Shown in pieces: positions 9,892 through 64,000 of a DNA stretch of 64,000 nucleotides. The DNA is from Crocinitomicaceae bacterium. GTDB lineage: Bacteria > Bacteroidota > Bacteroidia > Flavobacteriales_D > Crocinitomicaceae. The notes beneath the pieces were generated by a model that was not told where the DNA came from, ran no database searches, and was given only the letters and a program-made list of their open reading frames with translations. Made by a program: the position numbers and the translations under genes. Location: NCBI GenBank assembly GCA_028689775.1, contig JAQVCM010000011.1, positions 87,077 through 151,076 of the forward strand, in the 5' to 3' direction. Each line of letters opens with the position of its first letter. Positions within the stretch are counted from its first letter, which is position 1.

Positions 9892-10611
9892 ATGAAAAAA
9901 ATCTCCATTCTACTGCTCTTCCTGTCGTTTGCAATTGTTTCTTTTGCAGCGAAAACGTACACCTTAACATTAACCGTCAAAGATAAAGTAACGTCAGATC
10001 CACTAGCTTTAACGTCTATTTTCTTACTTTCTACTGAAGGAAAGGTCTTACTCGGTAAAACAGATTTGCAAGGTAATATTGAGGTAGAAGGATTAACGAA
10101 AGAATCAATCACCTTATCGGTTGAAGCACAAAGTGAAATTTACGACGTGAATGAAGTTGTTTTGAGTAATACTAAGCTGAAGAACATCTCTGAAACCATT
10201 TTAATGCGATACACTTATAAAGAACAGATGAAGATTTATGACGCAATTGATGAAAAATATAATAATCCCGATGAAAAATACATTGACGGAATCAAGAAAC
10301 CAGATACTGTACGCATTGAAGATGCTGAATTTATAGGCGGTAAAACGGAACTGATGAAGTTTTTGGCGAAAAACATGACGTATCCCGAAGACTGCATTAC
10401 AAATGGGATTGAAGGAAAAGTGTACCTTTCCTTTTTCATTCAAAAAGACGGAAAAGTTACCCACGTGAAAGCGGTTAGAAAGGTACATCCGAGTCTAGAT
10501 TTGGAAGCCATACGCACCATGCGCAAATCGCCAAACTGGAAACCCGCTACACGCAACGGAGAACCTATTAAATCGGTTTTTTACATTCCTGTTAATTTCC
10601 GATTGAATTAA
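9892..10611 (+). CDS. TonB C-terminal-domain protein, secreted (tandem copy 3, diverged)
   Basis: Same architecture and TonB_C motif (YPEDCITNGIEGKVYLSFFIQKDGKVTHVKA). About 50-60% amino-acid identity to copies 1 and 2. Confidence 0.6.
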   Translation: MKKISILLLFLSFAIVSFAAKTYTLTLTVKDKVTSDPLALTSIFLLSTEGKVLLGKTDLQGNIEVEGLTKESITLSVEAQSEIYDVNEVVLSNTKLKNISETILMRYTYKEQMKIYDAIDEKYNNPDEKYIDGIKKPDTVRIEDAEFIGGKTELMKFLAKNMTYPEDCITNGIEGKVYLSFFIQKDGKVTHVKAVRKVHPSLDLEAIRTMRKSPNWKPATRNGEPIKSVFYIPVNFRLN

Positions 10612-36845: not shown

Positions 36846-37715
36846 ATGAAAAAAACTCTACTCGCACTTTCATTACTAAGCATTAGCTTTGTAAATGCTC
36901 AACTTGAAAATGGAATGGTTGCTCACTTTCCTTTTAATGGGAATTTAAATGACGTTTCGAATTCGGCTATCGTGTCCACCAATACTGGAGGTTCGACTTT
37001 TGGAATGGATCGTAATTCAACTTCCAACAATGCAGTCGTACTTGGAAATGGGAAATACATATCATTCAATAATAATGCAATCAAAACTCAATTTCCAATT
37101 ACAATTTCTGTTTGGGTGAAATTCAATAGTTTTCCTGAAAACAGCAATGTTTTTTCTTCAGACAACGTAACACAGAATTATCATGGTTATTGGATGAATG
37201 TATTGGCATCCGGAAAAGTTGCTCTTAATTTTGGTGCCGGTTTGGGAACTTCAGGTGCTGATAATAGAAGAACATTTTTAGCTAATCAGCAATTAACTGT
37301 AGGAAAATGGCATCACATTGTCGCAATAATTCGTTCACACGATGACATGTCAATCTACATGGATTGTCGAAATTCTCCAGGATCATACAGTGGTACTGGT
37401 TCAACAAGCATTGAATATTCAACAACTAATTCCCGAATTGGAAATGGAGCCTTACAAACTATTGTACCTCAAGGATGGTTCGTAGACGGTTCGATTGATC
37501 AATTAGCGATTTGGAATCGAGACTTATCAAGCGAAGAAGTTTTAAGCTTATGTCAATTAAATTCTACTTTGTCTGTTATAGAAATCCAAAAAGCTTCAAG
37601 AGAATTGGTTAAAATTATAAATGTTTTGGGTCAAGAAGTGAAAGCTACACCTAACACTCCATTAATTTATATCTACAGTGATGGTTCAATTGAAAAAGTT
37701 GTAATTGTTGAATAA
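36846..37715 (+). CDS. LamG-like (concanavalin-type) domain protein with a T9SS type-A C-terminal sorting domain
   Basis: Signal peptide. The LamG-like core (WHHIVAIIRS..IDQLAIWNR) and a C-terminal KIINVLGQEV...IYIYSDGS por-secretion tail. Confidence 0.55.
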   Translation: MKKTLLALSLLSISFVNAQLENGMVAHFPFNGNLNDVSNSAIVSTNTGGSTFGMDRNSTSNNAVVLGNGKYISFNNNAIKTQFPITISVWVKFNSFPENSNVFSSDNVTQNYHGYWMNVLASGKVALNFGAGLGTSGADNRRTFLANQQLTVGKWHHIVAIIRSHDDMSIYMDCRNSPGSYSGTGSTSIEYSTTNSRIGNGALQTIVPQGWFVDGSIDQLAIWNRDLSSEEVLSLCQLNSTLSVIEIQKASRELVKIINVLGQEVKATPNTPLIYIYSDGSIEKVVIVE

Positions 37716-37902
37716 AAACAATTGTAATTTTGAAAGGCTCTTTATGAAAATAAGCGGCTTTTTTTGATAGTAAACAGCTTGATTTAAAAATGAATTTGCG
37801 AAGTAGTATGGTCTTGAAATAGGAAAAAATAGTTATTTTTGAATCTAAAATTCGTATCAATGAATTTTAGATTCTTTTTAAACGTTCTTAATTATTAGAT
37901 TT

Positions 37903-38778
37903 ATGAATAAAATAGTACTCTTAATCACAATTTTAAACTTTGGTTTCTTAAACGCTCAAATTGAAAATGGAATGATTGCTCATTTTCCTTTTAATGGAAA
38001 TCACAATGACATTTCAGCTTCCGTAATTGTAACAAATAATGTTGGAACTACATTCGGAAATGATCGCAATGCAACTGCAAATCAAGCGGTTGAATTGGGA
38101 ACAGATAAATACATTTCTTTTACAGACACCGCAGTAAAAACCAAATTACCTTTAACAATTTCTGCCTGGGTGAAATTTAACTCATTCGCAGAAATGAATG
38201 TCATCTTCGCATCTGATAATGTATTCGATAACTACCACGGATATTGGTTTTATACCGTTCCAAATACAGGGCAAGTTGCTTTCAGTTATGGCGCTGGAAT
38301 GGGCGGAACGAATGCAACAAATAGAAGAACAACGACCACGGACACACAATTATCCATTGGAGTTTGGTATCATCTTGTTGCCGTAATTCGAGCACATAAG
38401 AACATGGAAATTTACTTCAATTGTGAAAAACAACCATTTAGTTACTCTGGTTCTGGAGCTACCAACATGATTTACTCTTCAACCGAATCACGAATTGGTT
38501 CTGCGCCAGGCGATATCACGAATACGAATGGATGGTTTTGCGACGGTTCGATTGACCAACTTGCAATTTGGAAAAGAGCAATTACTCCTGCTGAGATCAA
38601 TTACTTATGCGACATCAACAATACATTATCTGTCATTGAAAATGACACGACAAAAGAACCAAAAGAAATTCTTAAAATCATCAATGTTCTTGGTCAAGAA
38701 GTAGAAGCGACTAAAAACACACCTTTGATTTATATCTACAGTGACGGTTCGACTGAACGAATTGTAATTACGGAATAA
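37903..38778 (+). CDS. LamG-like domain protein with a T9SS type-A C-terminal sorting domain (paralog)
   Basis: About 55% identical to 36846-37715, with the same CTD. Confidence 0.55.
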   Translation: MNKIVLLITILNFGFLNAQIENGMIAHFPFNGNHNDISASVIVTNNVGTTFGNDRNATANQAVELGTDKYISFTDTAVKTKLPLTISAWVKFNSFAEMNVIFASDNVFDNYHGYWFYTVPNTGQVAFSYGAGMGGTNATNRRTTTTDTQLSIGVWYHLVAVIRAHKNMEIYFNCEKQPFSYSGSGATNMIYSSTESRIGSAPGDITNTNGWFCDGSIDQLAIWKRAITPAEINYLCDINNTLSVIENDTTKEPKEILKIINVLGQEVEATKNTPLIYIYSDGSTERIVITE

Positions 38779-50432: not shown

Positions 50433-50987
50433 CTACACATCCAAAGTTCCAGGAAACAAGTCTTGTAATTTGTTGCAAGGATAATCAGCGATGACTTCTA
50501 GTGTTTTGTTGAGCCACTTGTCGGGGTTCACGTTGTTGAGTTTGCAGCAGGCAAAAAATGTGTAGAACATAGCCGTTTTTTGTGCGCCGTTGTGTGAACC
50601 GGCAAAAAGGTAGTTTTTGCGACCGAGTGCAACGGGACGGATTTTATTTTCGATAGCATTGTTGTCGATATGATAGTTGCCATTTTCAAGATAGGTCATC
50701 AGACTAGCCCATAATTTAGTACAGTACTCAATAGCTTTTCCAATGAGTGATTTAGGTAAAACGGCATTTCGTTCGCGATGCATCCATTGGCCTAAATCGT
50801 TGATGATTGGAAGCGCTTCCTCCAGCCGGAGAGCATGTCGTTCTTCTGCCGATAAATCTGCTAATTTTCGCTCAATGGTATAAAGTTTTTGGATTTCCTG
50901 CAATACGTATGATCCTCGCTTTTTATCTTGTAGCAATGCTTTTTCAAAATATCTGCGTGCATGCGCCCAACAAGTAAGGCTTAAACG
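50433..50987 (-). mobile_element. IS66-family transposase remnant, C-terminal ~185 aa only
   Basis: CWAHARRYFEKA and YLENGNYHIDNNAIENKIRPVALGRKNYLFAGSHNGA match conserved IS66 TnpC motifs. The frame is closed by a stop at 50988-50990. No tnpA/tnpB or N-terminal part is present. Local GC is elevated. Confidence 0.8.
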
Positions 50988-51046: not shown

Positions 51047-52102
51047 CTATTTATTATGACATCTTATACTTTCATTGGGATAATATTTTTTCTTTAACCA
51101 AAATGAAACTCGAACCAAAAAGATAAGAACTGGAACTTCAACTAATGGTCCAACTACACCCGCAAAAGCCTGTCCGGAATTTAGTCCAAATACTGCTATA
51201 GCAACAGCAATCGCCAATTCAAAGTTATTTCCTGCTGCCGTAAATGAGACGGCTGCATTTTCCTTATAGGAAGCTCCCAGTGCTTTAGTAAAGAAAAAAC
51301 TGATGACAAACATTAAACTAAAATACAAAATTAAAGGAACTGCAATAATTAAAACGTCCATTGGAATTTCAACAATTAACTCTCCTTTGAGCGAGAACAT
51401 TATCACAATGGTAAACAAAAGCGCAATTAGGGTTGATGGTGAAATGGTTGGAATAAACTTTTCTGTGTACCACATTTCTCCTTTTAACCTTACCAAAATC
51501 ACTCTACTTAAAATTCCCATTAAAAAGGGTAGTCCTAAATAGATTGCTACACTTTCTGCAACCGTAGCAATTGATATATCCACAATAGCCCCTTCAAATC
51601 CAAAATACGGTGGAAGAACCGTTATAAAAATCCAAGCATAGAAACTATAGGCAAAAACTTGAAAAATACTATTTAAAGCTACCAAGCCTGCTCCATATTC
51701 GCTATCTCCTTCAGCAAGGTCGTTCCAAACCAAAACCATTGCGATACAGCGAGCTAATCCGATTAAAATAACGCCTACCATATATTCTGGATAATCACGT
51801 AAAAAAGTAATTGCCAAAACAAACATTAAAACGGGGGCAATTATCCAATTTAGAAAAAGTGAAATGGAAAGAATTTTAGTGTTTCTAAAAACTTTTGGCA
51901 AAAGCGCATAATTCACTTTAGCCAAAGGTGGATACATCATTAAGATTAATCCTATGGCTATGGGAATGTTCGTGGTGCCTCGACTCATTGAATCAATAAT
52001 GCTTGGAAATGATGGGAAGAAATATCCGACTCCCACGCCCACGAGCATAGCAATAAATATCCATAGCGTTAAATAATTATTGAGAAAACTGATTTTTTTC
52101 AT
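51047..52102 (-). CDS. acr3: arsenite efflux transporter, ACR3 family
   Basis: Ten TM helices, the ACR3 N-terminal motif ([13 protein letters not shown]), and placement in the ars operon. Confidence 0.85.
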
Positions 52103-52115
52103 GTATTACTTCTAG

Positions 52116-52532
52116 TCAATTATCGAAAATGTCTTTTTGCTGCTCAATCACTCCGTTTATATTGCACGATAACTTTACCGTATTGTAGATTGTGCCAAAT
52201 TTTTCAATATTCTTTTTTAGCAATGGGATATTTAAATTTTCATCAGAACTGTAAATCGTTAGTCTGTAATCGATGTTATCCATTTTCAAAGGTTTTTCCA
52301 TTCGTTTAGCTGACACATTTACTGTGGCTTTTGAATAAGTAAACTTCATCATAGCAGAAAATCGCTCGACATTTTTTAGCATACACGAAGCAAAAGCTCC
52401 TAAAAAAAGCTCGGCAGGATTAGGTAAAGTTTCAGCAGATTTTGAAGTTGTTCCAAAAGCTATGTCATTTTGCTTTATTTGAATAGCAGCGTCTTTATTT
52501 GAAAAAGATGATGCCCTAATTTGGTATTCCAT
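52116..52532 (-). CDS. OsmC/Ohr-family protein
   Basis: 138 aa with the conserved Cys pair spacing (ASCM...LSCNI) of OsmC-like peroxiredoxins. Embedded in the ars operon. Confidence 0.45.
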   Translation of the reverse strand: MEYQIRASSFSNKDAAIQIKQNDIAFGTTSKSAETLPNPAELFLGAFASCMLKNVERFSAMMKFTYSKATVNVSAKRMEKPLKMDNIDYRLTIYSSDENLNIPLLKKNIEKFGTIYNTVKLSCNINGVIEQQKDIFDN

Positions 52533-52569
52533 AATTATATCTATTTTATATTAGTCGTTTTGAAAATAG

Positions 52570-53205
52570 TTAAGAAGCTTTTATCTGAGAGAAAACGTAA
52601 AACAGTTCTGTTGCAATTTGCAGACTTCTTTCATTATACTTTTCTGCCTGTTGTGGTGTATTGTCAAATGCTTTTGGGTCTTCAAAAGTTATAGGAATTC
52701 GTTTTTCTGCTCCGCTAACAAATGGACAGGCTTCGTTTGCTGAATCGCAAGTCATAATTGCAGCAAATTCAGATTTCGGGTTAAAATCATCATTCAATCT
52801 TTTTGAAAATCCGATTATTGGATGCTGGTTGTACGCATATTTAATACTGTAAATTGAGTTCTCGTTTTTTGAAATAGTTTTAATCTGAAAACCTGAATTT
52901 TGCAAAGTTTCTGCAACGATTGGAAAAAGTGCCGTACTTTCTGTTCCACCTGAATAACAGAATACATTTTTGATATTGAAATGATAAGCTAAAGTTTGTG
53001 CCCAAACCTGTGATAAATGACTTCTTCGTGAATTGTGAGTACAGATGAAGTTGATTCTGATATCTTGCTGATTTGAAACTTTAGACTGTATAAATTCCGT
53101 TAGTGGTTGTAAAATTGCCTTACGTTCAGTTGAAATTGTTTGAGGATTTAAGGCCTTGATTACTTGTTCAATTTCTGAAAACATTGTTGATTTTGTTATT
53201 GACAT
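52570..53205 (-). CDS. arsC: arsenate reductase, LMW-PTP type, with an N-terminal extension
   Basis: CX5R P-loop (FICTHNSRRS) and a downstream Cys pair (CDSANEACP) of thioredoxin-coupled ArsC. Confidence 0.7.
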   Translation of the reverse strand: MSITKSTMFSEIEQVIKALNPQTISTERKAILQPLTEFIQSKVSNQQDIRINFICTHNSRRSHLSQVWAQTLAYHFNIKNVFCYSGGTESTALFPIVAETLQNSGFQIKTISKNENSIYSIKYAYNQHPIIGFSKRLNDDFNPKSEFAAIMTCDSANEACPFVSGAEKRIPITFEDPKAFDNTPQQAEKYNERSLQIATELFYVFSQIKAS

Positions 53206-53228
53206 TTTCTTAATGTTAAATTATTATT

Positions 53229-53696
53229 TTAGCAACAGCCACTGCCTGGTGTACAAGAAGATCCATTATTATATTCAGATAATTTAACTTTTGGTTTTTC
53301 ACTTGGTATGCCGCATTTATCTTTCGCCAAACAATCGGTTTGTTTATTAGTCAACAAAAAGTTTTTACCGTCAAAATCAAGTCCGAATTTCCCAATCGTA
53401 TTACCTTGATATTCCACTTCGATATCTAAATCTTCAATTCCTAAAATGCGTTCGGATAATTCAATGATGCTTAATAGTTTTTCTGGATGCAATCTGTGAT
53501 CATAGTCATTGGCGTTCCAAAGTTGGAAGTTCACTACCTTCTCGTTTCTCACAGTTCCGCCACAATCAATGAAGTGTTTTGTAACTTTTCCAACTTCTGT
53601 TACGTGAAAGTGGTTGGGTACTAATTCCCCATTTGGTAATTGGAAAGCGATCTTATCCAGTTTATTCAATTTGTTTTTAATTTCTGATAACTTCAT
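53229..53696 (-). CDS. DUF6428-like protein of ars operons with a Cys-rich C-terminus
   Basis: Positioned between arsR and arsC. C-terminal CTPGSGCC. The family assignment is from memory of Bacteroidetes ars clusters. Confidence 0.45.
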   Translation of the reverse strand: MKLSEIKNKLNKLDKIAFQLPNGELVPNHFHVTEVGKVTKHFIDCGGTVRNEKVVNFQLWNANDYDHRLHPEKLLSIIELSERILGIEDLDIEVEYQGNTIGKFGLDFDGKNFLLTNKQTDCLAKDKCGIPSEKPKVKLSEYNNGSSCTPGSGCC

Positions 53697-53751
53697 TTCT
53701 CTATATTTATTTGTTTATTGCGATTTAACGATTGATATAATGAAAAAATAA

Positions 53752-54060
53752 TTAGCAACAATCTGCTTTAGGAATGTCCTGATCTAAAAATTGATGCATT
53801 AACATTTTCATTTTAGTCCAGTTTTCACTGTCTATACAATAGCAGACTTTGACACCTTCGACAGTCCCTTTAATTAGTCCTAAGGTTTTTAATTCTTTTA
53901 AATGTTGTGATATAGTAGGTTGGGCAAGACCAATTTCTTCGGATAAATCTCCGCAATAGCAAGCATCAATTCTAAATAATTGTTGTAAAATAGCTACTCG
54001 AGCAGGATGTCCGAAGACTTTTGCGAATAGAGCGATTTCTTTTTGTTGGTCAGTATACAT
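53752..54060 (-). CDS. arsR: ArsR/SmtB-family metalloregulator
   Basis: Winged HTH (IGLAQPTISQHLKELKTLGLIK) and a metal-binding CYCGDL motif in helix 3. Confidence 0.8.
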   Translation of the reverse strand: MYTDQQKEIALFAKVFGHPARVAILQQLFRIDACYCGDLSEEIGLAQPTISQHLKELKTLGLIKGTVEGVKVCYCIDSENWTKMKMLMHQFLDQDIPKADCC

Positions 54061-54399: not shown

Positions 54400-54798
54400 T
54401 ACATTTTATATGACAACGAAAAAAAAACGCCGGAAGAAGTAAGGTTCAATAAAGTCCTTAATCGTGCCTGTCGCGAAGTTAATGGCTTTTCAGAACTACT
54501 TCATCGTTTTGAACGGAATATTTCTGTTTTGGGCCGTAGTAAGAAAACGTTTGAGAATTACAGTCGCCATGTTGCAACAATGGCTTTGCACTTTCAGTGT
54601 TTGCCAACTGATTTGGATGCTGAACAAGTGCAAGAATATCTTTTTGAACTGCAAAAACGCAGTAAAACACCTTCGCAATCGTACTTTAAGCATACGGTTT
54701 ATGGACTTCGATTTCTCCTGAATGGATACAAAAAAGAGAAGCTGATTTACTTCCTTGTACGTATTATCACTTGGTTTTCACCTTGCCAAGTGAATTAA
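54400..54798 (+). pseudogene. tyrosine recombinase/integrase N-terminal (SAM-like core-binding) fragment, with no catalytic domain
   Basis: ..RSKKTFENYSRHVATMALHF..LDAEQVQEYLFELQKRSKTPSQSYFKHTVYGLRFLLN has the helical pattern of the integrase N-terminal domain. The frame ends after ~130 codons with no RHRY catalytic region. Confidence 0.4.
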
Positions 54799-55363: not shown

Positions 55364-55618
55364 TTTCGTCTTCTAAGGTTGCCACTAACGTTTTGCGGCT
55401 GGTGCTCTGTCGTCTGTCCTTGCTAACCATTGTCAGTATTGAGTTTCCGTTTCATTGAGTGTCGGCTGTGCGTTGCGTTTTTAATTTTTTTGAAGGGTCG
55501 GGAAATTTTTTAAAAACAATTTTTTTCTTGCGGTGGCTTTGCAAGCTCTTTGACAAAGCTTTGGTCTGTGCTTGGGCTTGTGCGGCTTTGGCAATGTGCT
55601 TGCAAATAGGGTTGGGCA

Positions 55619-57349
55619 TTATGTAAATACATCTCTAATCAATTTCTTTATTGTAAGGTTCTCAAGTTTAGATGCAATTGGTGATACATTGTCTAAGTTG
55701 TCTTTCCAGTGCATTCCTTCATTGTAAATTATTCCAAGCAGATAATGTGATTCGGGTGAAATAACTCCCATTTCTTCTGCTTTTTCTAATTTTGGTCTTG
55801 TTTTTTTAGTTGTCAAAAATGTGGTTTGAGCAACTGGATTTTGTAATCTATTATATGCTATTTCTTCAATTTTCACTCTTACTCCACCACATACTGCAAA
55901 AGGACAAAATTGTCGGTCATTCAAGTAATTATCTATTTCGCTAAACAGAAACTGATAAAAGTTATCAGACTCGCCCCAAAGCTCTCTTAAACCAAGTCCA
56001 TTAAACTCAGCTCGTTTGTTTATGTGTGTTGGGTAAAAATGAAGTAGGTGTTTTGAAACATCATCTTTAATTGAAATATGTTCTCTATTTCTGAGCAGTC
56101 TAACGATGCTTTGATTGACTTGAATATTTGATTTTTCGAGGTAGTAAACTTTTTGTTTGCTAAAAGCAAAATTCTTAAAATAGTTTGGGTTTAAATGTGT
56201 CAGAATGATTGGGTAAAGTCGCTTCCCTTCATCATTGAAATCTTTTATGAAAGTAGTAATGTAATATTGTGCTGCGGTCAGGTTTGCATCATCAAGGTAG
56301 TCGAACACTTCATCAATTATCAGAATGTTGGCATCTTTTTTTAAATGCTGTCTTGCTCTGAATAACATTGAAATGAAAGTCAAAATATCTCTTTGACCAT
56401 TTGATATATGAATAGCTTCTGGAAATTTCACAACTAATTGTCCACCTGTCTGACTGGCTCTAATTCCTTTCCAAGTGCAATTAAAAGTTGAGAGAGTATG
56501 TTCAAATCGCTGTTTGTCTAATTGGTAATTGCTATAGGCACAAGCTGCCTTGAAATTGTTAGGGTTATTGTTGTATAACCATATTAACTGAATTGCCACC
56601 AAATAGGCTTTGGATTCCGAATTATACCCAACATCAAATTCGTGTATGAGATTACCAATTGTATTTAAATAATCTATTTGTTTTAAGTCATTTAATCTGT
56701 TTGCCGTTATCCAATCTGTTAAAACATCTGCTGTGCCCGCCTGTTGATTTATTTCGTCAATAATAGCATTGATTCGAAGTTGAATTCTTTGACCATTAGC
56801 CCTTTCTAATGCTTGGTAATTCTGACTTAATTTTTCAACCAGCTTTAAATTATTTAGTGCAGCATTACGATTGGGTAATACCCGTGAATTTTGACCAAAT
56901 CTTCCTTGTGATGCCCTGAATTGATTACCAAAAGAAACATTATTAGGTATTCGGTCAACCAAAACTACATCTTTGATTTCAAGCCTTGCACTTGCTCTGC
57001 CGAATTGACTCCCAACTCCTTTGGGCTTTGTTGGATTGTTGATGACAAAAAAATCTAGTTCAGAACTTATTGTGTTTGTTGTTGCAGTGGCTTCAAGTGT
57101 AGCAATAGATGAATCAGGTCTTTCGTATTCGATATAAATTCTTGGTGGTAACGCTGGATTCTCCTGATGGTAGTTTTCTTCTGTTAAGTTAATTCGCCTG
57201 CTATTCATTTCATTGAAAGCCACAGCAAACGAACTTTTACCAAAACCGTTTGGAGCAACTAAAAGACTTGGTTTATTTGGCCAAATATCCAATGTAAACC
57301 TCTTGTGGCCTATGCCTTTTATGTTTTCTATTTCAATGACTTTAAGCAT
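55619..57349 (-). CDS. ABC/OLD-like (AAA_15/AAA_21-type) ATPase with an uncharacterised ~150-aa C-terminal domain; defence-associated
   Basis: Walker A (APNGFGKSSF), signature-like SNGQRD, Walker B/D-loop (ILIIDEVFDYLDD). The C-terminal domain has conserved CPFAVCGG and His residues. It sits 11 nt downstream of the MTase. Confidence 0.7.
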   Translation of the reverse strand: MLKVIEIENIKGIGHKRFTLDIWPNKPSLLVAPNGFGKSSFAVAFNEMNSRRINLTEENYHQENPALPPRIYIEYERPDSSIATLEATATTNTISSELDFFVINNPTKPKGVGSQFGRASARLEIKDVVLVDRIPNNVSFGNQFRASQGRFGQNSRVLPNRNAALNNLKLVEKLSQNYQALERANGQRIQLRINAIIDEINQQAGTADVLTDWITANRLNDLKQIDYLNTIGNLIHEFDVGYNSESKAYLVAIQLIWLYNNNPNNFKAACAYSNYQLDKQRFEHTLSTFNCTWKGIRASQTGGQLVVKFPEAIHISNGQRDILTFISMLFRARQHLKKDANILIIDEVFDYLDDANLTAAQYYITTFIKDFNDEGKRLYPIILTHLNPNYFKNFAFSKQKVYYLEKSNIQVNQSIVRLLRNREHISIKDDVSKHLLHFYPTHINKRAEFNGLGLRELWGESDNFYQFLFSEIDNYLNDRQFCPFAVCGGVRVKIEEIAYNRLQNPVAQTTFLTTKKTRPKLEKAEEMGVISPESHYLLGIIYNEGMHWKDNLDNVSPIASKLENLTIKKLIRDVFT

Positions 57350-57360: not shown

Positions 57361-60300
57361 TTAATCTTCATCCTCCTCACTCTCATTATCCACCAAAACT
57401 TCCTCTTCCAATTCATCCAATACAATTTCTTCTTTGGCTTCTATGCCGTAAAGGAGGTTTACCATTTCGTCTATTTCGGCTTCTATGGGGCGGAGTTGGG
57501 CGTTCATTTCTGCTCGGTCTATTTCTCCTGCAAAATATTCTTTCTTGATTGCCAAACATTCATCAAACTTTTTGTTGAATGCTTTCAGTTCTTTCTCTGA
57601 AGGAATAATAACTGGTAATTTTTTTATGTCATTAACAGGGATATTTACACTTGTATTGAAGAACTCCCTTAACAATTTGAAATGTAAATAGCTATTCAAT
57701 GTAAGGACAAAATATTTATCGCCAAGAAATGTCTGGTCAAACAAAGCTCTCGACCCATCGTCATTGACAGTTTTTCCTTTCAATCTTGCCTTAAAGTATG
57801 AACTATTTGGGTTTAAAACATTTGTATAACAGAATCCTTCTCGGAAGAAGAACTGTGGGTTTCTTATTACTGGATTTCCTTTGCCTTTGCCAGAATTTTC
57901 ATATAGCCACTTTACAGTTTCTCTGTTCCACAAAATGAAATTATATGTTTCCATAAACCAGCGATTACCTTCTTTATCGCCTTTATCGTATGGCACATAA
58001 ATTTCTTTTTTTGTTTTTATTCCATTATTTTTTTCGTCATCGGTTAATTCATCAACATTGGCAATTTCATCATTTGAAATAATTCGATAAATAAACCCTT
58101 TCCCAAAAACTAATGCACCAAAAGATGATTTGATGTCGTCAAATAATATTCTAATTTCTTTTTCACTTAAGGCATCTAAAACTTCTTTGCAAGTATCTAA
58201 ATCAGATATGTTCCTAAGTATTTTAAACTCGTTTCTAATCTTGGGATGTTTATCTATTGCTTTGAGTAGTTTTTCAGCTCGGCGTAAAGGAATTTTATCA
58301 GCTAAATAATGATTCTCAGATATGCCAATAAACTTACCATTATCGGCAGTTGACATACCAGCTCCTCCATCTGTTAGCAAACCAATCAATGTTAAATTAC
58401 CCTGCTTTAAATTCTTAACATTTTTCTGAAGCTCTCCTCTATTTCTTTCAATTTCTCTTGATGTTTCAATCTTACTCCACCAAGTGTCAAAAACAGGTCG
58501 GGCAGGTTTTACTATTTTTTCCAAAATCTGACAGTTGTATTCTGTTGGTGAGAAAATTGCGTAATTGATGGCTTTACGGTATGGTTCAAATGAAACTTTG
58601 AATTTGAGTAAAGTTGAATTTTCGTCTTTGAATACTTTGTCGCCATCGCAAGTATGAGAATGTTTCCATTTTGGTGTGTCGTGTCCTAATGCACTGAATG
58701 TTCTATCTAAAATACGTTCCCAACTAGAAAGATTTTCTTTTGATGTCCGAATCTGTTTCCATTCTTCTTCTGTAATATTGAAGGATTCAGCATTTGGTTT
58801 TCTAATGTCAATGTAAACTGTCTCAGGTTTATCAATGGCTCTTTCCTTCTTAACCGTGAAAATGGCAGTGTCCACCAATGCGGAAAATGCTTTAGGAGTA
58901 TTGATAATTTCGGTAACTCGGCATACAGGCAATATTTTTTCCTCGTTTACAAATAGACCTTCCTCTGATTGATTTGTTTTGGCAATGCCTAAGAAATGCA
59001 TTCGCATATTCTTTTTGGTTTGCAAAGTCAGGAAAGTGTCGGAAGTAATGTAACTCAACAAACCGCCTGATTTCAGTAATTCAAGCCCTCGGAAAGTAAA
59101 GTGATTGTAAAGGTCATCGCAAAAGCCGTATTCTTCTTCTAACTTTTTGCTAATACCCATACTGCTGATGAGTTTGGTATTTACATAAGGCGGATTGCCA
59201 ATAACAATATCAAAGCCCGGGTTTTTGCTTTCCTTGTTAAATATTCCAGGGAAAACAACTCTTTCAATGAAATAATCTTTAATGGTGTTTTTAAAGATTG
59301 CCAAATTGCCCAATTCTTCAGCCAATGCCTTTTCTTTTTTGCGGAGTTTGGCAATTTCTTTTTCGGCTGCTCGGTTTGAAACCAAATGATTGATACCCGA
59401 ACGAACAGAATTTAATTGTTTGGTAATATTGTCGCTTTGGCTGTCAACAACTCGTTCGAGTAATTTTACAATCTTCTCTTTTATTTCTTCTTTGGTTCCG
59501 TGTCGGTCGCTTTTGGTAATGAAGTACTGATTTTCGAGATTGACTAATTCTTTCAACAATTTCTCATTGTCAATTTGGTCAATCAAATTATTCAGATTTT
59601 GGTCTTTGTAAAAACGGAACAATGAGTTTTTCTTGTAAAACTTAAATTCAAGGTTGGGCAGTGGTTTCAGGTTGTAATTCTCTTTTGAGAAATCAACCCT
59701 TTGCTCCACAATCAACGAAAGCCAGCAACGTAGTTTGGTTATTTCAATCGCATATTCCAACAAGTCCACACCAAACAAACAACTCCGCAATAAGCCCAAT
59801 TTTTTCACATAGCGAATTTGCCCATCAGCAAACATTTCAGAAATATGCTCTCTGAATTGCTCGTCTTTTGACTTCATCATTTCAGCCACCCACACTTTGC
59901 CTTCGGGGTCAACGGTAGTTAGCACTTGCATCATTTCTTCCAACATACCCATTGGGAAAGCTCCCGAACCACAAGCAGGGTCAAGCACGGTTGTTTCCAA
60001 AAGTTTGTGAATGATGGTTTTGCTGTTTTCGGGTTTTATTTCAGTATCGAGATGTTTCAATAAAGTGCTTCGACACATATAAGAAACCACAGGACGGGGC
60101 GTATAGAAGGCACCCGCATTTTTACGGGCTGCTTCTTTGGTATCATCGCTTTGTTCTGCCAACAAGTTTTCAAAAATTCTACCCAACATTTCAGGGTCAA
60201 CGGCAATTTCTTCTTCAAGTGGTGTGTTCTCTGCAATGGTGAATTTGTATCGGGCAAGAATGCTGTTCAGTCCTTTTTCTCTGTCTAAAAACAAGGTGTC

Positions 60301-61398
60301 GGGAACAGCAAAGGCATTATTCACTTTCCCCAAATCGCACCAGTCGTTTGGATGAATGTCGAACAAACCTCCATTCAGGTAAGGTGAAAAGAAAATAGCA
60401 TCTTTGATAGCTTTTTCATCAGAAAAATTTGCAGCATAAACATCAAATACTTTTTTATCACGGTCTTTCTTTTCGCTGTTCAGTGCGTTAAAGAAAAGGT
60501 TTTGCAGAATGAATTTATAATAAGCTGTGCCTTTGCTTTTGGGTTTTATCAGGTCGTTTTCTTCTCCATTTTCAAACTCAGGCAACAATAAACCATCTTT
60601 CACCACTTTGAGTTCTTTCAAAAACCAAATAAAAATCAATCTGGCAATCAGACGAACGGTAAAATCTTTGTGTTTTTCAGAACCTGAATTTTGATCAGGA
60701 ATTTTAATGTCTTTTACTGCTTTATTGAACCAAGCAATAATGTCTTCATAAAAATTCTTGTTGAGAACTGAAATGGAGAATACCGATTGCCAGTAGTAAT
60801 ACAACTGCGTGAAACTCTTAACGGCTTTGCTTCCTGTGGTTGGAATCACCAATTGTTTGAGAATGGCTATATGTCCTCTGTGTGGTTGATTGGTGTCAAT
60901 GTCTTTCAGTAAAGAGACCTTGCCAACTTTTTCACCTTCCCGCCATTCCTGTTTGTATTTAATGCGTTCACTGTTGGCAAACGAAATCAGGTTGCCATAT
61001 TTAAAAATGATGGTTACTGGTGTGTAAGGGAAAGTGCGGTTAAATGCTCTTGTAATTTCAGCTAAATGGCTTCTTGTAATAGGTAAGCCGTCTTTTCTGT
61101 TTTTCAGTGTTACGCCAAAAAGCAACAAGCCGTCATAATCGGCTTTTAGTTTTTTTACTTGTGCTAAATTTTTGAATGTTTCAGTGCCTTCAAAAATGGC
61201 ATCGTTCACCATACCCAAAGCAAATACATCTTCAATGAGTTTATGTGCTTCGTTGGTAGCTTTGAATCGTTCGCCCAATACATCAACTGCTGATGCAGGT
61301 TCGTCAGCCAAATAATCAACTGGCACTTTGAGTTCTTCAAAAAACGCTTTTAAAGCATTTATGAAAGATTCGCTATGGAATTTTGAAATTGAATTCAT
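57361..61398 (-). CDS. MmeI/PglX-family (Eco57I-like) N6-adenine DNA methyltransferase, 1345 aa
   Basis: Motif I DPACGSGAF and motif IV GNPPYV. Family-specific upstream motifs: SPYLNGGLFD, VDPEMLGRIFENLL, GAFYTPRPVV. Confidence 0.85.
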   Translation of the reverse strand: MNSISKFHSESFINALKAFFEELKVPVDYLADEPASAVDVLGERFKATNEAHKLIEDVFALGMVNDAIFEGTETFKNLAQVKKLKADYDGLLLFGVTLKNRKDGLPITRSHLAEITRAFNRTFPYTPVTIIFKYGNLISFANSERIKYKQEWREGEKVGKVSLLKDIDTNQPHRGHIAILKQLVIPTTGSKAVKSFTQLYYYWQSVFSISVLNKNFYEDIIAWFNKAVKDIKIPDQNSGSEKHKDFTVRLIARLIFIWFLKELKVVKDGLLLPEFENGEENDLIKPKSKGTAYYKFILQNLFFNALNSEKKDRDKKVFDVYAANFSDEKAIKDAIFFSPYLNGGLFDIHPNDWCDLGKVNNAFAVPDTLFLDREKGLNSILARYKFTIAENTPLEEEIAVDPEMLGRIFENLLAEQSDDTKEAARKNAGAFYTPRPVVSYMCRSTLLKHLDTEIKPENSKTIIHKLLETTVLDPACGSGAFPMGMLEEMMQVLTTVDPEGKVWVAEMMKSKDEQFREHISEMFADGQIRYVKKLGLLRSCLFGVDLLEYAIEITKLRCWLSLIVEQRVDFSKENYNLKPLPNLEFKFYKKNSLFRFYKDQNLNNLIDQIDNEKLLKELVNLENQYFITKSDRHGTKEEIKEKIVKLLERVVDSQSDNITKQLNSVRSGINHLVSNRAAEKEIAKLRKKEKALAEELGNLAIFKNTIKDYFIERVVFPGIFNKESKNPGFDIVIGNPPYVNTKLISSMGISKKLEEEYGFCDDLYNHFTFRGLELLKSGGLLSYITSDTFLTLQTKKNMRMHFLGIAKTNQSEEGLFVNEEKILPVCRVTEIINTPKAFSALVDTAIFTVKKERAIDKPETVYIDIRKPNAESFNITEEEWKQIRTSKENLSSWERILDRTFSALGHDTPKWKHSHTCDGDKVFKDENSTLLKFKVSFEPYRKAINYAIFSPTEYNCQILEKIVKPARPVFDTWWSKIETSREIERNRGELQKNVKNLKQGNLTLIGLLTDGGAGMSTADNGKFIGISENHYLADKIPLRRAEKLLKAIDKHPKIRNEFKILRNISDLDTCKEVLDALSEKEIRILFDDIKSSFGALVFGKGFIYRIISNDEIANVDELTDDEKNNGIKTKKEIYVPYDKGDKEGNRWFMETYNFILWNRETVKWLYENSGKGKGNPVIRNPQFFFREGFCYTNVLNPNSSYFKARLKGKTVNDDGSRALFDQTFLGDKYFVLTLNSYLHFKLLREFFNTSVNIPVNDIKKLPVIIPSEKELKAFNKKFDECLAIKKEYFAGEIDRAEMNAQLRPIEAEIDEMVNLLYGIEAKEEIVLDELEEEVLVDNESEEDED

Positions 61399-64000
61399 TA
61401 TTTACTTATGATAAACCAAGTGATTAAATCGAAATTGTCTTTATTGAATTTCTGCGAAGCAGATCCTTCATTTTTTAATTTTTGAATGGTGGTTTTACTT
61501 CCTGATTTCAGTTTGTTCAACATATCGAGTGAAGCTTTTCCCATTTTTTGTTTTACTGTGCCATCTTCCTGCACTTCTTCTTCCGTTGCCTGACTTTTTA
61601 ACCAAGTGCTTAATGCAGCCGATAAATGTTCGATAGATTTTGGTTCGCCTTGGTCAATGGCTTTTGGCACAAAACGAACTTCTTCTTTGTGTTTTGCCAA
61701 AGCGTCCAATACTTCTTTTTGGTTTAAGAATACCGATTTGCCCGAATGGTCAATGTAAATGAGTTCGTAACCCTTGTATTCAAAATTATTGGCTTTGGCA
61801 GGTTTGCTTGGATAGCCCAACAAGGCAATCATTCCTTCTTGTGGGCAAACTTCCTGAATGGCTTTAAACCCTGTGTAAATGCCGTTTGGAAGCGATTTAT
61901 AAAACTGCTCGTTCTTTCGCAGTTCTTCTAGCAATTCCTGACGGAAGGTTTCTAAAGACAAGTCATCAAAGCCTAATGATTTTTCGGTGTCAATTTCATC
62001 CCAAGAAGATTGCATTTGCTCCAACATCCTTGCTTTTTGTTTCTGCTCCAGATTTTCATCTTCTGCCATTTCTTTGAATGTGTCGGAGAAATCTAAATGA
62101 ACTTCCGAACCTGCCAATTTCATTGCAGCCATTCTTTGTTCAATTCTGCCTTGTAAATTCAAATAAGAATTGATGTTGTTGGATGGCCAGAAATTAATGC
62201 CAAATATTTTTGTGTTTGGCGAACCCAAACGGTCAATACGACCCATTCGTTGAATAACACGAACAGGATTCCAGTGAATATCATAGTTAATTACCAAATC
62301 ACAATCTTGCAAGTTTTGTCCCTCACTCAAAGCATCCGTTGCTATCAGAATATCAATCGGGCTTTGCAGTTTTTCATAAGTCCGTTTGTCGTTCTCTGCA
62401 ATCCAATGTTGCCATTCGTCAAACTGTTGGTTTAAAGAAAGTTCTTTGCTTGATGGTTCAAATTGCCATTCCTTTTCTCTGTATAATTTGGTGAAAGGAG
62501 CAAAGCGTTCCAAAATAGGTTCATACTTTTTGGTTTCTCCTTCTTCATTCCAAACGGTCGAAGTATCGCCACTTACAGCAGCCACTTTATCAAAACCTCT
62601 TGATTTCAGTTGGTCAAAGAGATAAAAAGCGGTGTCTTTGTAAACGGTAAAGATTAAAACTTTTGGATTACCATTATTATCACCTGACTGTCTTTTCTTT
62701 ATAATTCGGTTTATCAGTGTTTCCAGTTTATCATCTTCGCTGCTGTGGTTGCGTGGCTTCTTAATCTCTTTCGCAATTTTCCTTTCAAACTGAATTAAGT
62801 TCGATTGCAATAATTGCAATGCTTCAATATCTGCTTTTAAATCCTTCTTGTAGTTCTCAATATTGCCCGAACGGTCAATGTCCACCAATCGGGTTTTACG
62901 TTTCTTGCCTAAGGTGAAATCTTCTATTTGAGCTAAAATATCATCATCATCAAAGAGGGAAGGTTGGGCTTCATTCCAACCTGTTTCCTTCTTAGTTTCC
63001 TGATATTGCTTTATTCTATCGAGTGCATTTTGATGATGAGCTAAAATTTTTTCTGTGGTTGATTGAAAAGAAAACCAAGAAGATTCCAGTCGTTTCACCA
63101 ACAAGATATACATCATCTTCACCAAGAAATGGTCACGCTGTTTTTCATCGTGTAAAATGTCGGCATCTTCAAATTCGTCAATGTAAAATGAAGGTTGATA
63201 ACCCGAAAGCATTGGCGGAAAATGGTCGAAGAGTTCTTCAAAGCTTTCAAAGTTTCCGATTTGTTTGGGTGTGACGAAAATGTTTTCGGGCTTTGATTTT
63301 TTCGGAAACTCCAAACCGTCCTGATGTCCTTCAATCATTTTGCGGGTTCGTGCAACTGTTAAAGAATCAGTCAGTTTGAAAAAATTAGGCGGTAACTTCT
63401 TAATGAATTCACCAATTTTTGGGTCAGGTTCTTGTGTCCATTCGTTGAATGCCTTTTGTGCTGCTCTAAATGTGTAATCAATGTTTTTAATGTCTAATGA
63501 TTCTTCAAAACCTTTTGCATTGCCGCTAACAATTAGTTTGAATTGATTCCGAATATCCATGAACGAATTATTGATTGGCGTTGCGGAAAGCATCAATACT
63601 TTCACATCTTCGTTTTGTGAAAGAATCTGGTCAACCAAAAATTTGTAGCGTTTGGATTTATCGTTTCGCAAATTGTGGCTTTCGTCAATCACAAACAATT
63701 TGGGCTTTTCATTCAAAAACATTTTGTCTGCTCGGTCGTGGTATTTCTCCATCAAATCGTCTGTAAGGTCAGTATGAAATCTCAAGAAATATTCAAACTG
63801 GTCTTTCTCAAATTTAGAGTTTTGATTCTTCTGGTAAATTCGCCAGTTGTATTGCAGTTTCTTTGGGCAAATTAAAATCACTTCACGTCCTTGTAACTGA
63901 TAGAATTTCATTACTGCCAAAGCAGTCCAAGTTTTACCCAAACCCACTGCATCGGCTAAAATTGCTCCGTTATGTTTTTGAAGCATTTTAATCAAACTCA
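61398..64000 (-). CDS. SNF2-family helicase; the N-terminus runs off the window end
   Basis: Motif I (LADAVGLGKTWT), motif II (DESHNLRN), motif III (LSATP), motif VI (QRMGRIDRLGS). Its stop overlaps the MTase start (TAATG). Confidence 0.8.
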   Translation of the reverse strand, partial: SLIKMLQKHNGAILADAVGLGKTWTALAVMKFYQLQGREVILICPKKLQYNWRIYQKNQNSKFEKDQFEYFLRFHTDLTDDLMEKYHDRADKMFLNEKPKLFVIDESHNLRNDKSKRYKFLVDQILSQNEDVKVLMLSATPINNSFMDIRNQFKLIVSGNAKGFEESLDIKNIDYTFRAAQKAFNEWTQEPDPKIGEFIKKLPPNFFKLTDSLTVARTRKMIEGHQDGLEFPKKSKPENIFVTPKQIGNFESFEELFDHFPPMLSGYQPSFYIDEFEDADILHDEKQRDHFLVKMMYILLVKRLESSWFSFQSTTEKILAHHQNALDRIKQYQETKKETGWNEAQPSLFDDDDILAQIEDFTLGKKRKTRLVDIDRSGNIENYKKDLKADIEALQLLQSNLIQFERKIAKEIKKPRNHSSEDDKLETLINRIIKKRQSGDNNGNPKVLIFTVYKDTAFYLFDQLKSRGFDKVAAVSGDTSTVWNEEGETKKYEPILERFAPFTKLYREKEWQFEPSSKELSLNQQFDEWQHWIAENDKRTYEKLQSPIDILIATDALSEGQNLQDCDLVINYDIHWNPVRVIQRMGRIDRLGSPNTKIFGINFWPSNNINSYLNLQGRIEQRMAAMKLAGSEVHLDFSDTFKEMAEDENLEQKQKARMLEQMQSSWDEIDTEKSLGFDDLSLETFRQELLEELRKNEQFYKSLPNGIYTGFKAIQEVCPQEGMIALLGYPSKPAKANNFEYKGYELIYIDHSGKSVFLNQKEVLDALAKHKEEVRFVPKAIDQGEPKSIEHLSAALSTWLKSQATEEEVQEDGTVKQKMGKASLDMLNKLKSGSKTTIQKLKNEGSASQKFNKDNFDLITWFIISK

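Follow-up and report, generated by a model that had tools for sequence, protein, structure and literature searches.

An ABC ATPase with a fused, predicted HEPN-like C-terminal domain recurs behind many kinds of restriction-modification system

Genes at the locus and the protein family

The window, that is, the whole 64,000-nt stretch of DNA analysed here, carries a complete gene for a fusion of an ABC ATPase head with a separate C-terminal domain (C-domain; Table 1). The open reading frame is real, as judged by its full-length homologues and by very strong purifying selection (dN/dS 0.035–0.094 against orthologues, with synonymous sites saturated). It closes a same-strand run of three genes encoding, in order, a SNF2-family helicase, a methylase and the ATPase; the first two share 1 nt, and the ATG of the ATPase follows the methylase stop codon after a gap of 11 nt. 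Pfam searches identify the gene downstream of the ATPase as a GNAT acetyltransferase. Among the PADLOC models, the SNF2 gene matches 'HKD+Snf2 C3a139' (1.9e-57); its orthologues are 1129 aa long, and the one at locus L005 has an N-terminus weakly resembling a PLD (HKD) nuclease (PLDc_2, 5.7e-5). The methylase matches REase_MTase_IIG (3.9e-62) and, more weakly, PglX and DrmMI, and its NCBIfam matches fall under the cut-off.

At 90% identity, homologues of the fusion protein (E<=0.001) fall into more than 2,500 clusters, many of them full-length and 70–94% identical to it. At the 50% identity level there are 308 representatives with E<1e-30, and among the matches listed nearly all are full-length proteins of 565–620 aa. 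The family occurs mainly in Bacteroidota, and also on alphaproteobacterial and Bacillota plasmids. All members are annotated as 'hypothetical', and the effector part has no domain model. The family is distinct and unnamed, and may be listed in the ABC ATPase classification of Krishnan et al. 2020.

Table 1. Features of the fusion gene and of the genes and element flanking it (window coordinates).
Feature	Residues (aa)	Position (nt)	Strand	Remarks
SNF2-family helicase		61398..64000	(-)	First gene of the run; Pfam SNF2-rel_dom and Helicase_C; N-terminus lost at window end
Eco57I/type IIG-like N6-adenine methyltransferase	1345 aa	57361..61398	(-)	Pfam Eco57I 6.1e-25, N6_Mtase; PglX-like C-terminal region
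ABC ATPase–C-domain fusion ORF	1-576	55619..57349	(-)	ATG start, 576 aa and stop; complete
Head, N-lobe	1-134	56948..57349	(-)	Walker A APNGFGKSS, aa 32-40, nt 57230-57256
Helical insert	135-296	56462..56947	(-)	Between the ABC lobes, at the coiled-coil place of Rad50/SMC
Head, C-lobe	297-403	56141..56461	(-)	SNGQRD, aa 316-321, nt 56387-56404; Walker B/D-loop; H-loop
Walker B/D-loop IIDEVFDYLDD	344-354	56288-56320	(-)	
H-loop LTH385		56195-56203	(-)	
C-domain	404-576	55622..56140	(-)	All-alpha, 173 aa; HEPN-like, predicted metal-independent RNase
Key C-domain residues	R422, H437; T517/K520		(-)	
Key C-domain residues	R491-x3-E495	55865-55879	(-)	
Key C-domain residues	Y542-N543-x3-H547	55709-55726	(-)	
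CPFAVCGG	482-489	55883..55906	(-)	Not conserved
Conserved 3' element, non-coding		55475..55611	(-)	Directly past the stop codon

An intact ABC head with a variable helical insert

The AlphaFold (AF2) model of the fusion protein (pLDDT 95.5, pTM 0.88) consists of the head, a helical insert and an all-alpha C-domain. The original prediction had described an SMC/ABC-like ATPase head, and the motifs it quoted, APNGFGKSS, SNGQRD, IIDEVFDYLDD and CPFAVCGG, are all present. In an alignment of 120 sequences, the head residues N34, K38, S316, D321, D346, D350, D353 and H385 are invariant, and A32, P33, G35, G37, S40 and E347 are at least 90% conserved. Pfam returns SMC_N alone, with a sub-threshold score of 24.6 bits against a 40-bit cut-off; a profile search of the PDB matches aa 1-46 to PtuA and Rad50, and Foldseek relates the head fold to PtuA, Rad50 and SMC heads (E 1e-7 to 1e-6). 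These matches bear out the predicted class, and by its motifs and its model the head is a catalytically intact Rad50/SMC/PtuA-class ABC ATPase. PADLOC yields matches to AbiLi, PDC-S46, ATPase-Toprim, mad8, mad3 and PtuA (PtuA E 0.0066), and none of its defence models matches beyond the generic ATPase N-terminus.

The two ABC lobes are separated by the insert, whose helices span residues 144–289 (DSSP on the AF2 model) and form a compact bundle of about 160 aa without a coiled coil. Variability along the protein is highest here, with a median identity to the query of 22% compared with 37–50% in the lobes, and no column in it is conserved at 90% or more. The insert may represent a sensor or a partner surface.

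The SMC_N match, the likeness to Rad50 and SMC heads and the strong purifying selection could all be read as signs of a housekeeping ATPase of the SMC/RecF/RecN kind, acting in DNA repair or chromosome maintenance. Selection of this strength indeed counts against a defence role, as it is unusual for a defence gene. However, the hallmarks of housekeeping SMC, Rad50, RecN and RecF proteins are lacking here: there is no coiled coil, NCBIfam equivalogs stay far from threshold (recF 12 vs a 172-bit cut-off), and the genomic context varies and includes plasmids and defence islands. Conserved synteny with replication or repair genes was not seen in the contexts sampled, and no housekeeping family matches the C-domain. 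We regard a housekeeping function as exceedingly improbable.

A C-domain with a possible degenerate HEPN-like motif

The all-alpha C-domain is modelled with high confidence (pLDDT 97.5). The original prediction had left it undecided whether a nuclease partner was fused or missing; the separate, conserved 173-aa domain speaks for a fused effector. A search for the C-domain in other architectures yielded only copies of this protein that had lost N-terminal sequence; the domain was never seen apart from this head. Across sequences that are 28–63% identical, R422, H437, R491, E495 and H547 are invariant and T517, K520 and N543 nearly so. The conserved residues are thus Arg, His, Glu, Thr, Lys and Asn, with no Cys among them; as a set, they are of the kind typical of metal-independent RNases.

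The proposed Cys/His nature of the domain, suggested by CPFAVCGG, did not survive alignment. The fusion protein has four Cys in total, none of them invariant; at position 482, 103 of 120 aligned proteins (86%) have Asp and 9 have Cys, and at position 487, 88 (73%) have Cys. A zinc or Cys/His domain was rejected because the Cys residues are not conserved.

In the HEPN motif Rx4-6H, the Arg is usually followed by N, D or H (PMC3710099). The position of this Arg is taken here by Y542 (Tyr in 81%, His in 10% and Phe in 8% of sequences), so that the canonical motif is not present; the 95% conserved N543 and the invariant H547 would correspond to the polar and His positions of a degenerate Rx4H, Y-N-x3-H. 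Some HEPN families likewise lack the Arg and keep other conserved basic residues, and an upstream conserved acid is described as well (PMC3710099); the invariant E495 of R491-x3-E495 is such an acid. The C-domain is probably a four-helix bundle of HEPN-like fold, with a putative RNA-cutting function.

For the C-domain, Foldseek finds no PDB match at E<0.5, the sequence matches neither PDB nor PHROGs entries, and no Pfam HEPN family is matched at the sequence level. For the C-terminal 170 aa of the window protein and of 54 relatives, Pfam TOPRIM, DUF4435, HNH and anticodon-nuclease models give nothing at E<=10. The similarity to TOPRIM, DUF4435, HNH or OLD effectors that had been considered is thus not found, and the C-domain is all-alpha.

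The lack of both the canonical Arg and a significant Foldseek match would fit an HEPN-like C-domain without catalytic activity that serves in binding or regulation, as in MtlR. On this view the protein would use ATP to sense or clamp nucleic acid or protein and, instead of cutting RNA, would signal to other factors or regulate them, for example neighbouring restriction enzymes; the best-matching heads, of the Rad50/SMC/PtuA type, do partner separate nucleases. However, the five strictly invariant Arg, His and Glu residues together with T517, K520 and N543 form an active-site pattern, the HEPN domains argued to be inactive are those without conserved charged residues (PMC3710099), and no conserved partner gene exists to take up a signal. 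This explanation appears rather unlikely to us.

One protein behind many restriction systems

A restriction-modification (R-M) or methylase gene adjoins the ATPase gene in roughly 19 of about 49 contexts (about 40%), and five kinds of system lie directly 5' of it: type I, type II, type III, Mrr-helicase and PLD-SNF2 plus Eco57I-like methylase. The suspected link to R-M loci is thus recurrent. Type I (L001, L004), type II (L003) and PLD-SNF2-methylase loci precede orthologues of 82–92% identity; for proteins of 82–88% identity the preceding systems are type I, type II and Mrr-helicase, and for a 55%-identical protein it is a type III system. Further examples adjoin type I (L008, L014, L016, L028), type III (L043) and Mrr-helicase (L006) systems. 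Plasmid-borne and distant members lie next to a C5-methylase, TIR clusters, Shedu SduA or Vsr/C5-methylase genes. In about 60% of the loci examined the gene lacks an R-M neighbour, some of these loci lying amid ordinary metabolic or polysaccharide genes.

Across the loci examined the neighbours are heterogeneous, and no partner gene is conserved; in particular, no TOPRIM or DUF4435 gene is a conserved neighbour, and no HNH nuclease gene of the kind found in Septu (PtuB) adjoins the gene in the window. A 164-aa Cys-rich ORF lies directly upstream in five loci only and is absent in the window. The context changes from locus to locus, and the gene does not show a different, genus-wide conserved setting. 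As the same protein stands behind many types of R-M system or alone, it is an autonomous module rather than a component of the system next to it. The more specific claim that it is the effector arm of this particular SNF2-methylase module does not hold, since 82–92% identical proteins follow unrelated R-M types, and the gene often stands alone.

Alternatively, the ATPase might be the obligate third subunit of a PLD-SNF2 plus Eco57I-like methylase system, a machine resembling DISARM or BREX. The tight operon in the window would agree with this, as would the recurrence of the SNF2-methylase-ATPase trio (L005, L024, L093-L098) and the weak similarity of the upstream genes to DrmD, DrmMI and PglX. 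But those similarities score far under the curated cut-offs, an EVE gene can sit between methylase and ATPase, and at L005 both the SNF2 and the methylase genes are frameshifted while the ATPase is intact. Genomic context largely refutes an obligate subunit, as relatives follow type I, type II, Mrr-helicase or type III systems or stand alone, and we deem it very unlikely.

A conserved 3' flank

DNA homology among the loci is confined to a segment that starts about 5 nt ahead of the ATG and ends 70–220 nt past the stop codon, and includes a conserved non-coding 3' element. Copies of this element (nhmmer) follow the closest orthologues, with additional ones at L006 5261-5341 and L012 8122-8241. 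Its predicted fold is weak (z-score -1.95), and it has no match in Rfam.

An integron-like cassette with an attC site was considered because the 3' flank is conserved and several loci carry repeat copies on the same strand. This was not supported: the element occurs only after the closest orthologues and in the two extra copies, the repeats of other loci are unrelated and locus-specific, the putative R'' and R' sites lie much too far apart, the fold is weak, and a nearby integrase fragment is convergent and decayed. A small ORF over the stop codon, called in L094, was also discarded; by eye, the differences between copies are not biased towards synonymous changes.

The gene and its 3' flank behave as a discrete unit, while the genes upstream of it are exchanged, and some loci are islands with integrase or IS remnants and relaxases, or lie on plasmids. 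In view of this, and of the ATPase that stayed intact beside broken R-M genes at L005, the unit could be a selfish toxin or addiction module that stabilizes mobile islands or R-M cassettes by post-segregational or stress-triggered killing and does not mainly protect against phage. However, no conserved neighbour resembles an antitoxin, the 164-aa upstream ORF being too sporadic, and the layout of a sensor ATPase plus an effector is typical of abortive-infection defence. A mainly selfish role seems distinctly improbable. Addiction and phage-defence roles can coexist.

Relation to known ABC ATPase and HEPN systems

The PrrC anticodon nucleases (E. coli EcoPrrC and relatives) share the overall plan of the family: an N-terminal ABC ATPase and a C-terminal all-alpha domain, a metal-independent HEPN-class RNase in PrrC and predicted to be one here, within a single polypeptide genetically linked to R-M loci. 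PrrC and RloC cut tRNA in the anticodon loop and leave 2',3'-cyclic phosphate ends, and the nuclease domain of PrrC has an Arg-Glu-His triad. The residues essential in PrrC are R320, N321, E324, R349, N352 and H356 (PMC3025547), and two spacings recur in the family, R-x3-E (R320/E324; R491/E495) and N-x3-H (N352/H356; N543/H547). In contrast to PrrC, which has about 380-400 aa, the family protein has 576 aa, carries the 160-aa helical insert, and lacks both the LARP motif and an Arg at the position of PrrC R349. Moreover, PrrC is embedded in a type Ic hsd locus and silenced there, whereas the family gene lies 3'-terminal to, or apart from, many types of R-M system.

At the sequence level, Pfam AAA_13 and the PrrC and RloC models of PADLOC do not match the fusion protein. 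A PrrC profile was built from 31 sequences retrieved from metagenome contigs by means of the LARP peptide KYGDSNKSFSY; it is shallow (Neff about 2). Against the C-domain part of this shallow profile, hhalign aligned R491xxxE495K of the family on R320NLYE324K at a probability of 0.2% and E 0.32, which is not significant. Full-length profiles align in the Walker A region only. The PrrC/RloC analogy drawn in the original prediction thus extends to architecture, but not to membership of the sequence family.

RloC, a Rad50-like anticodon nuclease, combines an ABC head that contains an insertion with a C-terminal HEPN-class RNase, often has no link to R-M genes and is regulated by its own ATPase (PMC3710099; PMC3458546). 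The family resembles it in having an insertion-split head followed by a C-terminal HEPN-class domain (an RNase by prediction only in our case), but differs in that a compact helical bundle without conserved Cys replaces the long coiled coil and CxxC zinc hook. For the ATPase part, the closest solved structures and profiles are PtuA of Septu and of retron-Eco7/Ec78, defence ATPases with helical extensions. PtuA pairs with the separate HNH nuclease PtuB, whereas the effector-like domain of the family is fused and all-alpha. OLD, Gabija GajA and PARIS AriA-AriB are likewise ABC ATPases of defence islands coupled to a nuclease, which in the family is putative; however, their TOPRIM or DUF4435 domains are absent, and the weak ATPase-Toprim and AbiLi matches cover generic ATPase motifs only.

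Compared with stand-alone HEPN proteins and toxins (HepT/SO_3166, HI0074, TTHA0636, sacsin HEPN and MtlR), the C-domain has Tyr, His or Phe in place of the Rx4-6H Arg; about 55 additional N-terminal residues, of which R422 and H437 are invariant; and an insert that holds T517 and K520. The family gene has no MNT antitoxin partner.

A proposed ABC-gated RNase

On these grounds, and by analogy with the plan of PrrC and RloC, we propose that the family is an autonomous, single-polypeptide module of the abortive-infection type, in which an ABC head gates a putative HEPN-like RNase; we rate the chance that this is correct as slightly better than even. Both the RNase activity and the defence role are inferred. 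ABC heads dimerize around two ATP molecules, the Walker A motif of each head pairing with the signature motif of its partner, and HEPN RNases are active as dimers; head engagement would therefore control the juxtaposition of two C-domains. Nucleotide-dependent engagement or release, set by what the variable insert senses, might bring the C-domains together and switch on a metal-independent RNase site, for which H547, N543 and E495 together with the substitute basic residues R491, R422 and K520 are candidates. Cleavage of tRNA or another RNA of translation would then arrest the infected cell. At the ends of R-M operons, such a module could act as a second line of defence after restriction has failed, without depending on one partner.

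A bolder version, which we advance as an unlikely one, holds that the family is a so far unrecognized, type-independent 'guard' of restriction systems, an ABC-gated RNase with a non-canonical HEPN site (Y-N-x3-H plus R-x3-E) that senses failed restriction in general. Possible triggers would be anti-restriction DNA mimics, unmodified replicating DNA or DNA ends, and not a specific R-M partner. A guard of this kind would explain why one nearly identical protein accompanies type I, II, III, Mrr and PLD-SNF2 systems, and would also account for the unusually strong purifying selection.

The ABC-ATPase-gated RNases PrrC and RloC are textbook examples of suicide as a second line of defence tied to restriction and, to our knowledge, the only such families studied. 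As the R-M-linked ABC plus HEPN design has been recognized since 2013, the proposal is not conceptually new. If it is correct, the HEPN RNases would gain a new variant of their active site, the gating of a fused nuclease by an ABC head could be studied in a tractable single-gene system, and the annotation of defence islands in Bacteroidota would improve. The structure of the family protein is now predicted with very high confidence, and the candidates for catalysis have been narrowed to a few invariant residues.

The ATPase gene belongs to a large, uniform family

The ATPase gene begins with ATG and runs on the minus strand (ORF listing and translation), and all motifs quoted in the original prediction were located in it. 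It closes a co-directional run of SNF2 helicase, methylase and ATPase: its start codon lies 11 nt beyond the end of the methylase gene, and 255 non-coding nt separate its own end from a GNAT gene, after which comes an arsenic-resistance operon. In the source, a Crocinitomicaceae MAG, the product (MDD2983733.1) is annotated 'hypothetical protein'. The arsenic-resistance-type operon encodes an ArsR regulator, DUF6428, a low-molecular-weight phosphatase/ArsC-like protein, OsmC and an ACR3/SBF-family transporter; nearby, a tyrosine recombinase and an IS66 transposase are represented by fragments. The region from ~50 to 64 kb has the appearance of a genomic island in decay, comprising the R-M-like operon, the ATPase, the GNAT gene and the ars operon. 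Elsewhere the window holds tandem TonB_C and Laminin_G_3 paralogues.

A word-indexed search matched more than 2,500 clusters (90% identity) to the ATPase at E≤0.001; the best 120 are 71–94% identical, full-length nearly throughout, and all annotated 'hypothetical' or with generic ATPase names. Hosts span many Bacteroidota genera (Leadbetterella, Pedobacter/Hufsiella, Flavobacterium, Sphingobacterium, Myroides, Emticicia and others), and tblastn found full-length members of ~31% identity on plasmids, conjugative or mobilizable, from Sinorhizobium, Agrobacterium and Brochothrix. When 1.84 billion cluster representatives (50% identity) were scanned exhaustively with HMMER, 308 matched at E<1e-30; since nearly all the matches listed are 565–620 aa long and align end to end, the architecture is fixed. 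Against orthologues, dN/dS is 0.035–0.094 (Nei–Gojobori), with synonymous sites near saturation. By these sequence comparisons the gene is real and its family large, uniform and unnamed; no source annotation names it, and the 2020 ABC-ATPase classification might list it. In Sediminibacterium roseum (L042) the gene has decayed, its last 101 codons alone remaining 3′ of a type I R-M operon that resembles the one in L004.

Features of the window, of the ATPase (aa) and of other genome loci carrying homologues (L-numbers, locus-internal coordinates)
Feature	Location	Strand	Remark
SNF2 helicase gene	window 61398 to beyond 64000	-	cut by window end
N6-adenine methylase gene, Eco57I/type IIG-like, 1345 aa	window 57361..61398	-	1-nt overlap with helicase gene
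ATPase gene, 576 codons	window 55619..57349	-	
3′ element, ~137 nt, after ATPase stop	window 55475-55611	-	conserved in closest orthologues
Further 3′-element copies	L006 5261-5341, 11753-11887; L012 4453-4559, 8122-8241; L001 11749-11815		
Walker A, APNGFGKSS	aa 32-40		located in translation
Signature, SNGQRD	aa 316-321		located in translation
Walker B region, IIDEVFDYLDD	aa 344-354		located in translation
Cys motif, CPFAVCGG	aa 482-489		located in translation
N-lobe, beta-rich	aa 1-134		AlphaFold2 model
Helical insert	about aa 135-296		AlphaFold2 model
C-lobe	aa 297-403		AlphaFold2 model
C-terminal domain, all-alpha	aa 404-576		AlphaFold2 model
Type I hsdR-M-S directly 5′ of ATPase	L001, L004, L008, L014, L016, L028		L001 gap 2 nt; L012 partial
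Type II N6-methylase + BsuBI/PstI enzyme directly 5′	L003		
Type III mod-res directly 5′	L043		
1547-aa Mrr-helicase directly 5′	L006		
PLD-SNF2 + Eco57I-like methylase directly 5′	window, L005, L024, L093-L098		EVE gene between, sometimes
C5-methylase operon directly 5′ of homologue	Agrobacterium plasmid		ORFs overlap
PLD(HKD)-SNF2 helicase + 1234-1345-aa methylase pair	window 57361-64000; L005 2491-9989; L094 1305-8398	- (window)	
EVE-domain gene, 132-134 aa, between methylase and ATPase	L024 6679-7077; L094 8405-8809; also L095-L098		
164-aa Cys-rich ORF	L004 9487-9981; L010 1162-1656; L012 2183-2677; L013 9413-9982; L014 9489-9983		17-19 nt 5′ of ATPase
182-aa ORF between hsdS and ATPase	L004 8928-9476		
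ATPase gene remnant	L042 10043-10351		
18-nt tandem repeat	L001 6849-6992		about 6 copies
Arsenic-resistance-type operon	window 51047-54060	-	
Tyrosine recombinase fragment	window 54464-54798	+	Phage_int_SAM_4, 2.9e-6
IS66 transposase fragment	window 50433-50936	-	
Three TonB_C paralogues	window 8418-10611	+	tandem, ~240 aa each
Two Laminin_G_3 paralogues	window 36846-38778	+	tandem; repeat blocks 72-83% identical in DNA

An intact ABC head with a variable insert

ABC proteins generally need a head-to-head dimer, with Walker A from one head and the signature motif from the other. In an alignment of 120 relatives, N34 and K38 (Walker A), S316 and D321 (signature), D346 (Walker B), D350, D353 and H385 (H-loop) are invariant, and E347 is at least 90% conserved. 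In the AlphaFold2 model built from this alignment (pLDDT 95.5, pTM 0.88), the helical insert stands where Rad50 and SMC have their coiled coil; conservation is lowest in this insert, where no column reaches 90% and the median identity is 22%. Judged from the alignment, the ABC-type ATPase site is intact and the insert variable. Foldseek of the model against the PDB returned only heads of Rad50, SMC, cohesin, Septu PtuA and retron-associated PtuA (E 1e-7 to 1e-6), and a PDB profile search matched PtuA and Rad50 via the first 46 residues and the region of the signature and Walker B. That the ATPase is a housekeeping SMC/RecF-like protein is hardly credible, given its lack of a coiled coil and of any equivalog match, and its variable contexts.

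A candidate active site in the C-terminal domain

The C-terminal domain of the window protein had no Pfam match at E≤10, and none recurred across 54 relatives; NCBIfam, PADLOC (2023) and PHROGs gave no match covering it, so that no model in these four collections recognises the effector domain. PDB sequences left it unmatched by single sequence and by profile, and the Pfam/PDB check proposed in the original prediction yielded no family. Apart from the ABC head the domain was seen in truncated fragments only. Candidate HEPN-class structure matches for it are MtlR (3brj, 6kcr; the top match), TTHA0636 (1wwp), sacsin HEPN (3o10), HI0074 (1jog), HepT SO_3166 (5yep), AF0298 (2hsb) and the HEPN toxin 8xdj; Foldseek of the domain against the PDB gave nothing at E<0.5. 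The Cys motif highlighted initially does not typify the family: among relatives, 86% have Asp at position 482 and only 73% retain C487, and the ATPase holds four Cys in total.

Invariant in the C-terminal part of the 120 sequences are R422, H437, R491, E495 and H547. Y542-N543-x3-H547 has exactly the Rx4H spacing, with an invariant His, an Asn conserved to 95%, and Y/H/F at the Arg position; E495 supplies an invariant upstream acid, and R491, R422 and K520 are basic and invariant or nearly so. HEPN domains are marked by Rx4-6H, in which a polar N, D or H follows the Arg, together with a conserved acid upstream; some families have lost the Arg and retain other conserved basic residues, and inactive domains are those that lack conserved charged residues (PMC3710099). 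We regard this Arg/His/Glu/Asn set as a candidate active site. A non-catalytic HEPN-like sensor domain, which would agree with MtlR heading the structure matches and with the absent canonical Arg, is unlikely in view of the five strictly invariant charged residues.

PrrC and RloC have nuclease domains that are divergent HEPN domains (PMC3710099). An alanine scan of EcoPrrC identified H295, K299, H315, R320, N321, E324, R349, N352 and H356 as essential (PMC3025547), and the R320-x3-E324 and N352-x3-H356 spacings match R491-x3-E495 and N543-x3-H547 of the ATPase. From 48 metagenome contigs with the PrrC LARP peptide we derived 31 distinct PrrC proteins for hhalign. Full-length profiles aligned around Walker A only, and the C-terminal domains reached Prob 0.2% and E 0.32 with a shallow PrrC profile, the best path setting R491xxxE495K on R320NLYE324K. 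These values do not support PrrC-family membership by sequence; of the initial PrrC/RloC-like reading the shared design stands, and the likeness is one of design and, probably, of superfamily. The design, an R-M-linked ABC ATPase with a HEPN-class RNase, has been known since 2008–2013, but each sequence test run separates the present family from PrrC and RloC, and it has another insert and a degenerate Rx4H motif. It is a good and cheap experimental target, not a surprise.

A self-contained unit beside many restriction systems

Context was sampled at 39 species-level genome loci, with further look-ups and three plasmids, and neighbours were classified by seed searches, clustering and Pfam. The gene adjoins many R-M types, but roughly 60% of the loci, from a set of about 49 biased towards close relatives, have no adjacent R-M gene. 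There the neighbours are heterogeneous, and no family accounts for more than 3 of the 149 ORFs around the gene. Neighbours recorded are TIR clusters, Shedu SduA, AIPR, AAA_15 and Mrr, along with metabolic or polysaccharide genes of an ordinary kind. L005 has fragmented, pseudogenised SNF2 and methylase genes beside an intact ATPase gene whose product is 92% identical to that of the window. DNA homology between loci extends from ~5 nt before the ATG to 70–220 nt past the stop. From the swapped upstream systems, the loci without R-M genes, the gene-limited DNA homology and the undetached C-terminal domain we conclude that the gene is a self-contained unit, often but not obligatorily appended to any type of restriction system. 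The promiscuous contexts contradict the suggestion that it is an arm of the neighbouring SNF2/methylase module, and make an obligate subunit of that system very improbable. A selfish addiction module for its island fits the data and is compatible with a defence role too; we consider it rather improbable.

What is firm is that an ABC ATPase carries a conserved all-alpha C-terminal domain and that its gene often lies beside R-M genes; on function beyond that we infer. On balance we lean towards an autonomous abortive-infection-type module on the PrrC/RloC plan with a predicted RNase C-terminal domain. HEPN RNases work as dimers whose site is composite, and two such domains would form one here. 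The insert would sense a signal and control whether the heads, in an ATP-dependent way, engage or disengage; their movement would juxtapose the two domains for metal-independent RNA cleavage, and hence translation arrest in the infected cell. The same logic applies to PrrC and RloC (PMC3710099) and to ABC-ATPase defence systems generally (bioRxiv 10.1101/2024.01.29.577857).

Several neighbours merit mention. EVE domains, one of which is encoded between methylase and ATPase in some loci, are described as modified-base readers. PADLOC labels the SNF2/methylase pair 'HKD+Snf2 C3a139' plus type IIG, and the pair's DrmD, DrmMI and PglX matches score far under curated cut-offs; it appears to be a candidate two-gene restriction system outside the standard named types. 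The 164-aa Cys-rich ORF (...ETCMMCGNEK...VGCTCAEK...) of five loci, 74–93% identical among copies, without a Pfam match and missing from the window, may be either an occasional partner or a further hitch-hiker. The 182-aa ORF of L004 has weak MtlR and DUF4145 (HEPN-family) matches and would be a second HEPN-type gene within one type I operon. In the Leadbetterella type I R-M operon (L001), the 18-nt repeat AAATCTGGAGGCAATGCA adjoins a Y1 (IS200-like) transposase gene.

A conserved 3′ element

The non-coding element after the ATPase stop carries an inverted repeat, TTTGCAAGC...GCTTGCAAA. A weak RNA structure is predicted for the element (z -1.95), and an Rfam search gave no match. In L006, extra same-strand copies flank the Mrr-helicase and ATPase genes; in L012 they come after the next gene. 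Possible roles for the element are terminator/UTR, recombination site and regulatory RNA.
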